Part shown: piece by piece, positions 39,001 through 45,000 of the stretch
Layout: each line of letters begins with the position of its first letter
Position numbering within the stretch: position 1 is the first letter of the stretch
Origin: Gemmatimonadota bacterium
GTDB lineage: Bacteria; Gemmatimonadota; Gemmatimonadetes; Gemmatimonadales; Gemmatimonadaceae
Direction of reading: 5' to 3'
DNA: 64,000 nucleotides
Assembly: GCA_040389905.1 (NCBI GenBank)
Contig: JAZJZK010000012.1
Location: 126,929 to 190,928 of the forward strand
Position numbers: made by a program

Positions 39001-42000
39001 CGCTTCGAGCTTCGCAGGCCGAGAGAACACGCGAACGCGCTCGCCCTTCTCCAAGCGATAGCGCGCCTCGGCCCGGAGGATCTTCCCGTCTTCGCAAAGA
39101 TCCTCTTTCGTCTCCGTGATCGCCCACGCGGGCACCCAGAGCTCGTCGATTTTGATGCGGCCGTCACCCTGGTACTTGGAAGCATGTTCCAGCCAGAAGA
39201 ACGACGCAGCTCCGCATACGTGATCGTCGTCGAAGTGGGTGAAGGCAACGACGTCGAAGCGATCACGCCCCGCTGCCTTCAGGTCGGCGCGCAGTTCATC
39301 AGGCAATTTCGCGCGCTTGTCCGTCGGGTCTGTCGCGCACCGCATGTCCGCGTAGTCGAAGAGAAGCTTCTGCCCGCCGGGAAGGTCAACGCGGTATGTA
39401 TCCGCGTTGCCTAGAGGATACAGTGTGATCGTCGACATTTGTGCACCTCCCTCTTAGTGAGGGAGCGCCGGGAGGAACGTCGGCGCCCCTATGACTTAAG
39501 TCTCGCTCGTTTCGAGAGTTGCCCCGCGACGGCCCCAAATAGAGGCGGCCGTTTGCACTTGGGCATGTCCTTACGTGCCTGACAGAAGTAGCGGCAGGCC
39601 CATTGGCGTCATGCCGTCGAGAACAAGGTGAGACGCGTAACCGGCCATTGACCCAAGAATCGCCGCTACCGCAAGCCGCCACAGACGCGCATTGAGCATC
39701 TCATTGCGCCACGCATCAGAATCCTTCGCGAGCGTCGCGGCACGCCGCTCGCACTGCGCTGCCTGGTCAAGACAATGGGCGTGGTGGCGAGCACGGGCGA
39801 GTGCACCGATGCCTGCGGCTGCCGCCAAGCTGTGTGCCGTGCTTCGATGACGTGGATTCAAAGCCGGCTCGATCAGGTCGGGGAGCAGTGCACTACCCGA
39901 TGCGCTCAGCGTGCATGCCAGGACATGTGCGAAGCGGTCCTTCTCTTCAAAGAGGGTCATCGTCGCGAGGCCAGTCACGAGGCCTGCGATGGCTCCAGCA
40001 GCAAGGTGAGTTTTCTTGTTGGGCATAAGGACTCAGCGACCCTGTGTGGCGACCACTAACCGCCAACGAATGGCGGAGCGGTTCGAGTGCTGATGATGGT
40101 TCTGGGGTGGTAGGGGGTTACCCTTGTTCGAGGCGACTTCGTGGGCGCACCCCTCGCATCGATAGATCCCCGAGTTGTCGGTGTTGGCCCCTGGTGTTTG
40201 AACGACATCGAACGCCGACGCCGTAGATTGCGACAAGTATCCAGAGTTCTTGTAGAGCGCCATCCTCTCCTCCGTGAGTGGGCGCATCACCGAGATGGGC
40301 CCGTGCACGAAGGCTAAGTAGAGAGGGGCGGCAGGTCGTGGACGGAAGTTGGACGGAAATGGACCGCCGTTTCCGTCAAATCAATGCGACTGTCGACGCC
40401 AGGACGCCAGAAAGGCGTGCAATTTCGGCGTGGCTGCGGCCCGCAAGCCAAGTCGTATTGATCTTCCCGATCGCAATTGCATCAGATAGAGCGTAGGTGC
40501 CGCCATCGTTCACGATGACAGTCGTCGGATCTTCGAAAGCAGCAAGTAGCACCTTTCGGAGTCGGTCAACCCGCTTATAGGCGATCTGCGCGTTGTTTCC
40601 GAAGTCGCTTAGTGCTACTGGCCGTCCATTCGCTCGCCCGAGCAGGAGATGCAGCAGCACACACAGCTCCGAATCCGTCAATTGGAAGTCGCGGCCGCCG
40701 AGTGTCAAGACGGTCCGCCCTTTTATTGACCGACCGGTGATCTCGAGAATGACCCCGACGGTCGTAGAGACGGTCGCGTCACCACACGAACCATGCTGCT
40801 CACGACCGCTCTTTCGGAGTGCCTCGCCCACTCTGCGAACGACATCCGCCTCGCTGTATGGCTTTTGGATGATATCGTCGGCCTCAAGCTTCATCAGCTC
40901 CACCGCTTCCTGCACTTCATTCGCGTGCCCACTGACAACGATTATCGGGAGCCAGACGGTTTGCATTCGGGGACTGCCGAAGCGTTTGCGAATATCGGCC
41001 AGCAACGAGATTCCGACATTCGCTCGACCTTTGATGTGCTGCGCGCTGCTGGGAATGCTGAGGTCGAGAAGTACCACGCAAGGCGTATGCGACTCCAAAA
41101 ACACGAGCGCTGCGTCGCGCGTCGCTGCGATGGTCGGATCACAGTCCATCGAACGGAGAATATCCGCGAGGTCCTCAGCGGTCGGCGGATGATCCTCAAC
41201 GATCAGTGCACAGTGAGGAGTGCTCATCGAGTACCGCTGCGGAATTGTGGGACCGCGATGGCAATCAAGGTGCCGTCGCCCACCTTGCTCTCGATGTTAA
41301 GCGTCCCCTCATGCTCAGACTCGACGATCTTGATTGCGAGGGGAAGACCGACACCTGTACCCTGAGGCTTGCTCGAGCTGAACAGCGTGCGCGCATCAGC
41401 AAGCGCTTCGGGTATCATTCCGCAACCGCAATCGCGAACGCGAATAAGGATGGCGCCTTCGCATACTTCCGCGTCGATCTCGATCGGCCGACGGTCAATG
41501 AGTCCGCTGTACGCCTCAACAGCGTTGTGAAGCACATTCGATAACGCTTGGACAAATCGTGTTCGCGATACTACAAACTCAAGGGACGCGTCGACACGAT
41601 TCCTAATCTCCACCCGCATTGTCTCCGACACTCCGTCGGTCGTTCGAATCGCTTCGTCCAGGAGCCCGCGTACTCCTTCGCTCGAATACTCGAGATCAGG
41701 TAACGCTGCGTACTCGCGCATCGCATTGAGCACTGCATTCACTTGCTCAACGTCCTGTTCGACCCGACGGACCCTTTCAACCACGCGCGCGTCTGCCTCA
41801 GCGGCGAGAAGCTTGCGAAGTTCCTCGACTTCACGTTCCAGCGGCGTCAAGTACTTGATCACCTCATGGTACAGTTCGCGCGCGAACGTGTTCGTCATAT
41901 CGCTCGCCGCGCGATAGACCGCAGCGCGACCCTGCGCCCCGAAGCGTATGTAGATCGCCTCCAAGATGCCCTCAAGTCGCCGCTCGTGCTCACGACCGAG

Positions 42001-45000
42001 CAGGCCCGCCGCGCGCCAATCGCGCCGCCGTAAACTCGACGACTGCGCCGCCTGCTGTACCCGCGCATTCGCATCCGCTGCAAGGCGTGCAAGGAGCGCA
42101 TCCAAGCCAGCATGTCGACATTCTCCGGCCACGAGTGCGACCGCGCGCCGCACCTCCCATTTCTCGTGGGTGGCGAGGATCACAAGACTATCGACTATCG
42201 CTTGAGAATCGGCCGATCCGACGGGCTCGCGCTGTAGCCACACGCTGGCGGCGCGAATTCCCTGTTCGGTTTCCATCCAGGACACGGATCGAAGCCTCGC
42301 CAGAACCTCCTCGGCGCTTCCACGGTCAGTGACCATACCTCTTCATGCGTTCGAGAAACGCCGAAGCACCGCCTTCGAGGATGCGCTCTACAGCTTCCTT
42401 GCATTCATCGACTGTACCGACCTCGGCCACTCTTGCTTGCTGTCCGTCCGAGTCGAACACAAAGATGCGATCAGCGTCACCAAGAACGGGAATGTTCGGG
42501 TTGTGCGTCACGAACACCACTTGGCGCGTCAATTTCACGGCTTTTAGTGCGCCAACCACGGTGTCGAACACGAACGCATTGTCGAGATTGTCCTCTGGTT
42601 GGTCAATCAGCAGAGGGCGATCGCTCTGCCTGAGAAGGATTGGAAGGACCACTGTACAGCGCTGACCCGTCGAGAGGTGGGACGATTCCTTGTACGTCTC
42701 ACCGTCGCGCAGTTCAATACACGGAACGTCCCCGAGGTCAATGGTTTGAAGATCGTACGCGGAGCCGCTTTCTCGGAGCGTGTCGATAATGCGTCGAGCA
42801 CGTTCGGCGTCAATGCCCGCGCGCTCGGCCAGTTCCTCCGTTGCTTCGGCAAACACGAGCGCTGCGAGTTCGGTGGGCAGCAGAGCAGTCACCAGTCTGT
42901 CAGCTGCTAACCCCTGTTTCATGCGCTGCCCTTTCAACTGTTCGGCAACGAATGCGCGATAGGCATCGAGGTTGGCCGTTTGTCGGATGGACACGCGTAG
43001 CGAAGGAACGTCGGCCGACAGTTGTGCCGCAATCGCCCTGCGACGATTGTACCGTTCGTCACGCGCCTCTGACAAACGGGCGAGCAGTTCGGAGCGAGCA
43101 TTAATCGCAGCATCTCGCACCGCTGTTCGGCCATTTAGCTCGCGCACGGCGGCCTGTGCCGTGGCCAACGCCGCCTGCAGTACGCCGCGTTCTCGTGCTT
43201 GCTCTGCATGCTCCTGCGATTCCGCAAGGATGGCAGCGTACTCTGCCTCTTGTGCCACATGCTGATTCGTCAGGAGTTGACGCTGTTCGTCGATTGTCCG
43301 TTCCAGCTGGGCAGCCGCAGTCGCCGCAGTATCGGCCGCACCACGCAACGCTTCCGCGAACATCTCAATATTTCGCTGAAAGGCGGCTACCAATGCTGCA
43401 TTCTCACCGACGAGCAGGTCATCATCAAAGGCAGCATTCGCCGTGTCGCGAAATGTTGTCTCTAGAGCGGTGATATCTCGTGTCGCCCGCTGAACAGCTA
43501 CGAGCCCAACTTCCGCTATACGCTCCTCGCGAATCCGCCTCGCCTTTGCTGTATGCGCGCGTGTCAGTCGCTCGCCGTCCGGACCATCCGGCTGCGTCAG
43601 ACCCCGAAGACGCTCTTCAATCCCCGCCACTTCCGCGGCCCGCGCACGTAATCCATAAATCTCGTCGTCCAAATGCAGCAATTGGGCGGCGGAAGCCTCC
43701 AGAGCTCGTCCGAGTTCTTCGAGTTCGCGAGCTAGTCGACGGTTTGCCGATTCATCGAAGCGGTCAAGCAATTGAAGCTGCGCTTCCGCGTTCGACGCGA
43801 TCTCTTCGATTTCATTTTGGCTAAACACGTCTGCGCTGAAGATTTCGTCGCGGTCGAGAGAGATAGGCACGATTTCGCCGAGCGCGCTCCGGACGGTAAT
43901 GCTATCGCCCTTTCCGCGTTCTGCGGAGTAGGAGATTCCTGCTTTGGTGTTGACGTCGATCGTCAGGCGACCGGAAGCCAAATTGCCATCTACGAGAGAC
44001 TCTAGGGCGCGCCGACGTTGCGGGTGGATCTTCTGATCAGGTAGTAGGCCCAGCGCGAACCTAAGAAACTCCAGGGCAGTCGTCTTGCCGGTGCCCCTTC
44101 CGCCGATAAAGCAGTTGAGACCGTCAGACAGATGTAGGTCCGCACCAGCGAGGAAGCCGCCGGCCACGCGCAAGCGGGTAATTCTATGATGTGAGGTCAT
44201 CAAAATCACTGGCGTGGCGATCGGGGCTGATCATGCGAGGCACGCTAACCTACGCCAGCGAGCCGCGTTGGCAAGGAGATTCACCGCGTTCACGAGGCGC
44301 GCGACGTACCACGGTGGGTAACACGGAGACAGCGGACGGCGACAACCGAAGCAAGGTCCGCTCGCTGTTCGTGCGACTCCGTCAAACCGGGCAGCAGCAG
44401 ACCAACGACATCGACGGGCCGTTACTGGACAACCATCATGTTGAGGCAACACCACCCGAGTGGCCAGTTCGGTCACTGCGCAAGCGGTAGTATACGCATA
44501 AGCGCCAGCGTGCGCGCGCTTCGGTGAGCGGAGCGCCGCAGATAGCGACGTTGGATTTGCACCACGCGCTGGCGCCAAGCATTCTTGTCCTTCGCTCATA
44601 CCCGACGAATGATGCGCGGAACTGGACGGTGAACATGCAGCGGTCTAGCGGAAACGCCCACGAGATTCAGGACCAGCTGTTGGTTCTGGGCCTTCTGCGA
44701 TTGACTTCCCGGATCGCGAGTGCCCATCAATGAAGAAACCGATACTGACCTGGACAACAAACTCTTGCCGTTTTTCTTCTTGTTGGCATGCGGTCATTGT
44801 GCCGAAGCCCGTAGCGCCCACGAAGGGTGACTAATCCACCGGGGTGTGCAGCTTCTACGGCCGCTTCGCCTTCGTCGCATTGAGCACAGCACAGAGTGCG
44901 GTGGCTTGCACCTCCGCATCCTCCTGCGTACGCTCTGTCCGCGTGCCATAATACACACGATGGATGAACCGGCTGACACGGTGCTGAATATTGATTGATC

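Follow-up and report, generated by a model that had tools for sequence, protein, structure and literature searches.

The window, by which we mean the whole 64,000-nucleotide stretch of DNA analysed, carries three minus-strand genes in the order ATPase, kinase, regulator (Table 1), as described in the genome-wide survey's note. The genes are translationally coupled, and the kinase ATG overlaps the ATPase stop codon by 11 nucleotides. Because the same 11-nucleotide overlap is common to 54 of 66 loci, the kinase most likely starts at this ATG, which gives 370 residues and places the histidine at position 157; the 353-residue protein with H140 reported earlier corresponds to a start 17 codons later. 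The neighbours are as claimed, with 6A-MBL genes downstream (the MBL enzyme and the cap2_3 protein both above curated cut-offs) and IetA-IetS upstream. The helix-hairpin-helix stretch ascribed to the ATPase exists as a Pfam match, but a weak one (19.4 bits against a cut-off of 27).

Table 1. Features of the triad locus, listed in the direction of transcription
Feature	Position	Strand	Description
IetA-IetS	45753..49781	-	Upstream; IetA E 1.7e-70, IetS E 1.8e-30
ATPase gene	42326..44200	-	624 aa from ATG; Pfam AAA_23/AAA_21/SMC_N; proposed sensor
Kinase gene	41224..42336	-	Pfam HATPase_c and weak HEAT_2; soluble histidine kinase, 370 aa
Regulator gene	40376..41227	-	Pfam Response_reg; receiver and predicted diverged OmpR/SARP-like winged-helix domain
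Operator-like element	40340..40381	-	About 42 bp, inverted arms and third half-site; only copy in this genome (G000)
Element, left arm	40381-40369	-	Includes the regulator's stop codon
Element, spacer	40368-40361	-	8 bp
Element, right arm	40360-40348	-	Inverted partner of left arm
Element, third half-site	40349-40340	-	11 bp further on
-35 position	40334..40339	-	Poor match to sigma-70 consensus
-10-like hexamer	40311..40316	-	TAGCCT; conserved +62 offset
First cargo ORF	40033..40263	-	76 aa; good ribosome-binding site; CxxC pair; no family match
YdjM-like membrane/metal-hydrolase gene	39571..40026	-	Recurrent cargo leader
6A-MBL MBL-fold protein	38314..39438	-	NF058524, 380.6 bits (cut-off 220)
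6A-MBL E2-E1-JAB (cap2_3) protein	36008..38317	-	NF058523, 595.8 bits (cut-off 320)
Patatin phospholipase	34333..36102	-	PF01734, E 5.5e-20; probable end of cargo operon

The linkage of the three genes was re-tested with the kinase as query, independently of the earlier count made with the ATPase. In the genome loci the regulator lies downstream in 22 of 22 and the ATPase upstream in 19 of 22; two of the remaining loci (L016, L022) begin inside the kinase, and in the third (L017) the kinase is truncated at its N-terminus and the ATPase is absent. Among metagenome loci with enough flank, taken from the best 80 of 137 matches, the ATPase is present in 72/73 and the regulator in 71/73, although all these counts overstate independence because the loci are related and part of the metagenome set duplicates genome loci (e.g. 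L088/L013 and L082/L011). Both sets support the proposal of a self-contained mobile triad. Pairwise identities of the ATPase, kinase and regulator track one another (rho 0.94–0.96, 41 loci). The distribution of the triad in Gemmatimonadota is sporadic, and no kinase match at E ≤ 1e-40 was found in 400 other genomes of this phylum. The kinase likewise gave no match in plasmids at 1e-30 or in an alignment search of viral contigs. The literature searched gives no description of the triad, although supplementary neighbourhood datasets (e.g. Bub, CapKS) may list such loci.

Judged by its sequence, the ATPase belongs to the TrlF/Ppl clade of ABC (SMC-like) ATPases but lacks the PHP domain at the N-terminus. 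It matches the NCBIfam TrlF model from position 291 to 944 of 944, the PHP domain thus being absent, with 301.6 bits (below the cut-off of 350), matches NF045780 with an E value of 1.9e-89, and aligns to residues 255–885 of a full TrlF protein (hhalign 100%). Invariant in 51 rows are the Walker A K39, Q128, the LSTGQ signature, the DQPE Walker B and H566. The ATPase profile matched no PDB sequence at E ≤ 0.001. In viral loci, the kinase follows 35 of 39 PHP-less ATPases, compared with 0 of 23 long or distant TrlF-type ATPases.

The kinase consists of a HEAT-like helical N-terminal domain, a DHp domain with His157 and a HATPase_c domain, and has no ligand domain of its own. Its fold matches HK853 and ZraS, and H157, N267, N271, D302, G304 and G306 are invariant in 51 rows; the DHp histidine and the N- and G-box residues are those of class I histidine kinases. 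A model of the ATPase-kinase complex scored 0.74 against 0.01 for the best control, a mark reached by 116 of 157 solved pairs and 2 of 215 mismatched pairs, with 100% agreement between runs and a partner pLDDT of at least 72. In this model the HEAT helices dock on the distal arm of the ATPase, where invariant S377, D381 and Q407 contact W20, K59, W60, E61, R64 and N90 of the kinase; W20, K59–E61, R64 and N90 are themselves invariant. The model bears out the idea that the ATPase is wired to its own kinase, and a direct contact appears quite likely.

In the regulator, E11, S99, K122 and, as previously stated, the phosphoacceptor D55 are invariant in 60 receiver rows; the aspartate and lysine are those of an OmpR/PhoB-family receiver. 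Its DNA-binding domain does escape Pfam, as Trans_reg_C matches none of the 60 members, and a profile of this domain gave spurious matches only against the PDB. However diverged, the domain has a secondary structure that fits a winged helix, with Atlas TM scores of 0.61–0.66 to Trans_reg_C/SARP clusters, and the regulator model aligns over 190–203 residues to VanR (7lza), RpaA (9dvt) and KdpE (4kny), with Z 18.5–19 but an rmsd of 11–12. These comparisons suggest a receiver joined to a putative, diverged OmpR/SARP-like output domain.

We identified a conserved operator-like element at the stop codon or 3' end of the regulator gene in 18 of 22 training rows and 54 of 56 held-out loci. It is kept whether or not the regulator reading frame stops there, and it remains with the cargo in L002, where an insertion element has come between element and regulator, and in L099, which has lost the regulator. 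In 40 of 49 unique held-out sequences the element is followed at +62/+63 by a TAnnnT -10 box; all other offsets together gave 10 matches. Over the whole set the box is present in 55 of 65 sequences, where 0.5 would be expected. The -35 position has at most three of six consensus matches in 44 of 59 sequences and an extended -10 is seen in 1 of 59; a standard sigma-70 scan did not call a promoter behind the element. The element is single-copy in all six genomes tested (G000 and five of five triad genomes). The search for a wider regulon in G000 gave as next best site one of 14 bits without a -10, and 400 further genomes of G401's phylum contain only three one-mismatch matches, none with motif-like flanks. 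A host-wide box such as an SOS operator was rejected on the single copy per genome and the near-absence of matches in those 400 genomes. No motif lies upstream of the ATPase, so there is no sign of autoregulation. Binding of the element by the regulator is considered very likely.

The element also occurs on phages without the regulator, and 12 of 18 viral matches lack both the triad and the -10. No match was found in a motif search of INPHARED phages. The possibility that phages with the motif carry a gene for this DNA-binding domain themselves was rejected, since none of 13 viral records matched it while two positive controls were detected; a stand-alone homolog of the domain, used as query, found no viral locus. 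The module goes beyond defence, as viral contigs carry a sister subfamily behind which lie a different repeat array and a small phage-type gene.

Clear defence matches were found in the sense-strand cargo of 13 of 19 scanned genome loci and of 34 of 37 metagenome loci (from the best 80 of 137 matches), and include CBASS, Thoeris-like TIRs, Bil/Bub, 6A-MBL, Pycsar, OLD and APAZ. The YdjM-like gene is early cargo in 4 of the 19 and 7 of the 37, the latter from the same best 80. Clear defence cargo is absent from L004, L014, L019, L073 and L074, and the evidence is weak in L012, L015, L017 and L033. The scan set aside L006 and L021 (near-duplicates), L007 (contig ends) and singletons under 130 residues among 171 downstream ORFs; for the metagenome it covered 63 of 73 downstream representatives, the other 10 having close counterparts scanned among the genome loci. 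A regulator tree, built from the 39 rows that have both an unbroken regulator and an assigned cargo label, shows at least 18 changes of cargo class. Defence islands are in any case the setting of the triad: PADLOC matches lie within 4.6 kb upstream in 22 of 40 loci (123 of 133 representatives scanned), mostly RM, BREX, AbiE and helicases, with no cyclase. IetAS is a chance island neighbour outside the triad unit, because upstream neighbours vary across loci. Family searches found no effector domain in any of the three triad proteins. The gap named in the survey's note, no effector and unannotated neighbours, is closed at the computational level: the role of effector is assigned to the variable operon downstream, and the defence cargo behind a conserved element supports the note's suggestion of a regulatory arm of phage defence.

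Our best reading is that the triad is a Cap-type controller, like CapW, CapH/P and CapKS, that has a new sensor and probably acts as an activator; the conserved promoter probably turns on whichever anti-phage system adjoins it. We consider such a plug-in transcriptional controller of the adjacent immune operon, with the full mechanism that follows, to be probable. The PHP-less TrlF/Ppl-type ATPase would be the sensor, and the HEAT helices of the kinase would dock on its distal arm. The nucleotide- or DNA-bound state of the ATPase would change, most likely through damaged or invading DNA, with NTP depletion as the main alternative trigger; Ppl is described in the available part of PMC12904381 as responding to NTP depletion and DNA ends, and we put DNA damage or foreign DNA as the signal at even chances. 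The change would switch His157 autophosphorylation and transfer to Asp55, steps suggested by the invariant catalytic residues. The phosphorylated regulator would bind the three half-sites at its own stop codon and recruit sigma-70 polymerase to the promoter with the conserved -10 and poor -35, inducing the 76-residue ORF, YdjM, 6A-MBL and patatin here and CBASS, Thoeris-like TIRs, Bil/Bub, Pycsar, OLD or APAZ elsewhere. Alternatively, cargo could be expressed by read-through from the triad operon. A site upstream of a poor -35 that leaves the -10 free is the geometry of PhoB/OmpR-type activation, and we favour an activator over a repressor with moderate confidence.

The opposite sign, in which the unphosphorylated regulator keeps the promoter repressed or bars triad read-through until phosphorylation releases it, as with CapW, CapH and CapS, is unlikely. 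The three known Cap regulators of immune operons are repressors, not activators, in the available text of PMC13373217, and the inverted pair spans the stop codon, a place suited to a roadblock. However, the element stops just short of the -35 position and leaves the -10 uncovered, the -35 is mostly poor and the -10 almost never extended, and promoter-less phage copies would then induce defence. It is improbable that the triad is itself an effector system killing by a Detocs-like phosphorelay, or a general stress regulator whose defence neighbours reflect island location only: its proteins lack an effector domain, each genome has a single element site and sense-strand cargo lies directly behind a fixed -10, even if upstream neighbours are often defence genes too and Detocs and Ambrosia, in the accessible accounts, have two-component parts inside defence systems. 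Very improbable is a recombination or attachment site for cargo exchange or phage integration that the triad merely adjoins. The 13-8-13 arm-spacer-arm geometry, the change of cargo right behind the element, its viral copies, of which one is 95% identical over 64 bp to the 3' end of a regulator gene, and a copy that coincides with the stop codon of a small serine recombinase gene would suit such a site; yet no second copy flanks the cargo in the loci or in six whole genomes, spacers vary between loci, the fixed -10 spacing is left unexplained, and the tyrosine integrase in 5 of 10 viral records is always at least 4 kb from the element. Least probable is a palindrome acting as RNA, a terminator or stability hairpin ending the triad message: a stem of 7–8 bp can form and positions 9/18 and 10/17 show a few symmetric changes, but a U-tract is absent, outer arm positions are mismatched in 46/57 and 39/57, pairing barely exceeds column-independent expectation, z-scores for five sequences are -1.1, -0.2, -2.7, +0.2 and -3.3 with one lacking the stem, and the third half-site and -10 are left unexplained.

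No version of a host controller predicts by itself the phage copies of the element. Those without a promoter, on several unrelated phages, are possibly decoys. A wider picture, which we hold to be tentative and rather doubtful, joins these points. Controllers of immune operons would gain a fourth class, of activator type, whose two-component relay takes its input from a disarmed Ppl-type ATPase; promoter-less operators captured by unrelated phages would soak up phosphorylated regulator and silence CBASS, Thoeris or Bil/Bub cargo; and prophages would control their own early genes with the same sensor triad, fitted with another DNA-binding domain and an 11-bp repeat array.

Transcriptional switching-on of cell-killing immune systems has so far been represented by a few repressor modules. 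If true, the activator mechanism adds a His-Asp relay whose sensor is a soluble SMC-like ATPase, and the TrlF/Ppl ATPase gains a signalling role apart from its nuclease. New here is the likely target of the triad, the element and promoter behind the regulator, and the analysis supplies an exact predicted promoter, a candidate binding site and a residue set. The 42-bp element is a guilt-by-association handle, and unannotated genes behind it (e.g. in L073, L014, L025 and L033) are candidate defence genes. Phage copies, if decoys, would be a non-protein anti-defence strategy aimed at regulation.

Among known systems, the Ppl/TrlF PHP-ATPases (NF042955, NF045780) have a homologous ABC ATPase over the whole length, including the DQPE Walker B, and differ by a PHP nuclease; the triad ATPase lacks it, and its output would be rerouted to the kinase. 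BceAB-BceRS also uses an ABC ATPase system as co-sensor of a kinase without its own ligand domain, but involves a membrane transporter and peptide antibiotics, in contrast to the soluble SMC-like ATPase of the triad; the BceAB-S structure was matched through the kinase core only. In Detocs a receiver is fused to an enzymatic effector and accompanied by a buffer receiver, whereas the triad output is a DNA-binding domain. The regulator carries no effector domain. Detocs does resemble the triad in using a soluble histidine kinase with receiver proteins against phages, as the accessible part of PMC11728103 describes. Ambrosia has a two-component pair whose REC-wHTH regulator is proposed to control defence genes but, in the portion of 10.1101/2025.09.30.679545 available, consists of a fixed set of five genes, MTase and HNH of its own among them, and has neither an ABC ATPase nor interchangeable cargo; the triad's neighbours vary, with no fixed operon of XRE, MTase and HNH.

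CapW/BrxR and CapH-CapP are, as far as the available descriptions go, also mobile controllers of adjacent immune operons, the former a WYL repressor and the latter an HTH protein with a peptidase, and have no component in common with the triad; neither WYL nor HTH with metallopeptidase gave a Pfam match in its three proteins. The available text of PMC13373217 describes CapK-CapS as a kinase-based cassette directly upstream of diverse immune operons, often 3' of R-M, with a conserved site between regulator and cargo. According to the same text, CapK, a serine kinase of HTH-STAS-GHKL architecture, is itself the ssDNA sensor and acts by inactivating a repressor of STAS-wHTH type. In contrast, the triad is a HEAT-DHp-HATPase kinase with a REC-wHTH regulator, without STAS domains, and combines a His-Asp relay, a separate ABC ATPase input and probably activation. 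Like the Cap-type controllers, it is encoded directly upstream of diverse immune operons, with a conserved DNA site and predicted promoter between regulator and cargo. Its cargo spectrum mirrors that given for CapKS in the available part of PMC13373217 (CBASS, type IV Thoeris, Bil, MBL and Bub), which counts in favour of a controller of the adjacent immune operon.

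We found the three overlapping minus-strand ORFs of the triad, as described in the genome-wide survey's note, again in the window sequence. An 11-nt overlap between the ATPase and kinase genes occurs in 54 of 66 loci, and one of 4 nt between the kinase and regulator genes in 56 of 73. Because these overlaps recur across loci, the kinase start most likely lies earlier than the note had it, which gives a protein of 370 aa with His157 rather than 353 aa with H140. The conservation of kinase and regulator beside the ATPase also holds with the kinase as query: the regulator lies downstream in 22/22 genome loci and 71/73 metagenome loci and the ATPase upstream in 19/22 and 72/73, the metagenome loci being the best 80 of 137 kinase matches. 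The catalytic residues are in place, and the identities of ATPase, kinase and regulator across loci correlate at 0.94-0.96. Genome loci carry the taxon labels Gemmatimonadota, Acidobacteriota, Myxococcota and Pseudomonadota; in 400 additional genomes from the phylum of the window the kinase has no match at E<=1e-40. Some triads are broken or split by frameshifts, insertions or truncations (L006, L015, L019, L020, L021, L017, L104). The 5' region of the ATPase gene in L013, L026 and L029 has a -10-like hexamer 6-7 nt ahead of the ATG and no ribosome-binding site; messages starting there are possibly leaderless.

Features of the triad and its surroundings in the window
Feature	Window position	Strand	Remark
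Type I RM system	24146-32037		beside TcmP-like/DUF5131 pair
TcmP-like + DUF5131 convergent pair	32091-34079		PADLOC PDC-M30/M41 match
Element	40340-40381	-	at the regulator's stop codon
Regulator	41227-40376	-	ORF, overlaps kinase
Kinase	42336-41224	-	ORF, overlaps ATPase and regulator
ATPase	44200-42326	-	ORF, overlaps kinase
Short ORF	45370-45585	-	between IetS and ATPase; presumably resembles an HTH remnant
DUF4365-TPR gene + Ymh-domain beta-propeller gene	49740-53883		upstream of IetAS

The ATPase covers positions 291-944 of the TrlF model with a score under the cut-off, and over its whole length it aligns with the portion of a full TrlF protein that comes after the PHP domain. Judged by its sequence, it is a Ppl/TrlF-type ATPase without the nuclease, from a family of 408 clusters at E<=1e-40 (8000 scored candidates). 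On viral contigs, the kinase follows 35 of 39 short (PHP-less) ATPases, the other four being at a contig edge (three) or a fragment (one); none follows the 23 long or distant TrlF-type ATPases, and all five long ones tested exceed the TrlF cut-off. The soluble kinase has a standard core, and six short helices precede its DHp helix. Modelled as a complex, the ATPase and kinase residues 1-215 scored 0.74 (best control, 0.01), a mark attained by 116/157 solved pairs and 2/215 mismatched pairs, with runs in full agreement and a partner pLDDT of at least 72. The modelled contact joins invariant HEAT residues of the kinase to invariant residues of the ATPase arm, distant from the ATPase head. This predicted docking supports, but does not show, binding between the two proteins.

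The regulator has an intact receiver, and its DNA-binding domain does escape Pfam, as had been noted: all 60 members examined lack a match there. The domain is winged-helix-like and by predicted structure resembles Trans_reg_C/SARP domains; its family comprises 294 clusters at E<=0.001. The family also includes fusions to Hel308-like helicases (P0252, P0262, P0239, P0266), longer, often doubled, regulators (P0167, P0187, P0199, P0229) and stand-alone proteins of ~130 aa (P0176, P0213, P0234, P0235, P0260, P0261). In the Atlas, the nearest cluster (score 0.89) is a protein of 131 aa that is mostly viral, and this is a lead only. In a single sequence, P0204, a HEAT and DHp-like region matching the N-terminal half of the kinase (hhalign 99.2%) is joined directly to this domain, with the DHp His replaced by Gln; it may represent either a one-component derivative or an artefact.

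The sequence beyond the regulator's stop codon contains a repeat conserved across loci. This element consists of an inverted pair of arms flanking eight variable bases, with a third half-site 11 bp past the second. Of the 56 metagenome loci that had enough sequence (from the best 80 of 137 matches), 54 score above 15 bits at the end of the regulator with a matrix trained on the genome loci; of the two misses one site is shifted and one partial. A TAnnnT hexamer, a putative -10, stands at +62/+63 in 20/22 training rows, three of them with diverged arms, and in 40/49 unique held-out sequences (same best 80 of 137 metagenome matches). Overall the count is 55/65, inflated by kin, where the local rate predicts 0.5, and several sequences without TAnnnT have CAnnnT at the same offset. 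The -35 position falls directly after the third half-site and matches poorly. In L009:11960-12040 the palindrome arms differ and the -10 offset is unchanged; additional 10-bp repeats precede the element in L014:12060-12200. The loci whose recognition helices diverge most (the window, L001, L009 and L017) also have the most divergent sites, in a qualitative comparison uncorrected for kinship. The element is single-copy in the window's genome and in 5/5 other triad genomes, and remains ahead of the cargo after an insertion that separates it from the regulator (L002) or loss of the regulator (L099). A search of 400 further genomes gave no copy with convincing flanks.

The sense-strand cargo behind the element includes CBASS genes (cyclase, SAVED, HORMA/TRIP13, NucC), Thoeris-like TIR clusters, TIR-caspase, Bil/Bub ubiquitin-like operons, 6A-MBL, Pycsar-like cyclase, OLD-TOPRIM and APAZ, often headed by YdjM, DUF3892 or YjzC-like genes. 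In the window it comprises a 76-aa ORF, YdjM, 6A-MBL and patatin. Clear defence matches occur in the cargo of 13/19 scanned genome loci and 34/37 non-redundant metagenome loci (from the best 80 of 137 matches). As a control, we scanned both strands upstream of the triad: 22 of 40 loci have some PADLOC match there, chiefly to RM, BREX, Ssp, AbiE and helicases, with no cyclase among them. The triad thus resides in islands, with signalling and ubiquitin-like systems on the promoter side. Cargo is exchanged: a regulator tree of 39 rows requires at least 18 switches of cargo class, although class is still clustered (shuffled mean 23.5). Five loci (L073, L074, L014, L033, L025) have cargo with few or no defence matches, whose genes are candidate new defence genes. 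A first cargo gene of ~70 aa recurs in 9/37 loci (L033:4695-4910 and eight others), with no Pfam or PADLOC match.

On viral contigs, sister triads have repeat arrays of their own behind them; these exceed 60 shuffles in 10 of 28 cases and have an 11-bp period in seven. This suggests a general rule in which an operator lies directly after the regulator. In eight loci a gene of 61-87 aa follows, which we take to encode an excisionase-like HTH protein; the three tested had no NCBIfam match. Prophage-type sister triads with an 11-bp-period array and small gene after the regulator occur in L106, L108, L111, L113, L114, L115, L117 and L122, and other arrays in L131, L133 and L143.

The element itself also occurs on phages. 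We scanned viral contigs for the motif and obtained 18 matches, against three with the reversed pattern; 12 of the 18 also agree at positions outside the pattern (p<0.01), and four include the third half-site. The -10 at +62/+63 is absent from all viral copies in either direction, no triad genes lie within the fetched flanks, and 13 whole viral records contain no homolog of the DNA-binding domain. Among the 14 loci that we compared, only two come from clearly related phages. Similarity between viral and host loci ends where the third half-site ends, and integrases, where present, lie at least 4 kb away. Promoter-less copies, mostly from unrelated phages, are those in L184, L187, L188, L189, L191, L192, L193, L195, L196, L197, L198 and L201; some viral copies lie inside ORFs, and some have partial tandem or back-to-back half-sites. 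A decoy titrating an activator fits these copies best. They may instead be phage promoters with another geometry, or neutral captures, readings that fit less well.

The regulator would bind the element and activate the cargo. We favour DNA damage or foreign DNA as the input signal for two reasons: CapW, CapH/P and CapKS are described as responding to it when they control these classes of cargo (PMC13373217), and the regulator's DNA-binding domain occurs in fusions with Hel308-like helicases as well. NTP depletion is a less favoured alternative, suggested because Ppl is described as requiring it (PMC12904381).

In the literature covered, which excludes most subscription papers as well as the paper that classifies ABC ATPases, we found no description of triad or element. 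The triad and element are real. Ambrosia and Detocs use two-component parts differently. The triad would work like a Cap-type controller, yet it lies outside every named family.
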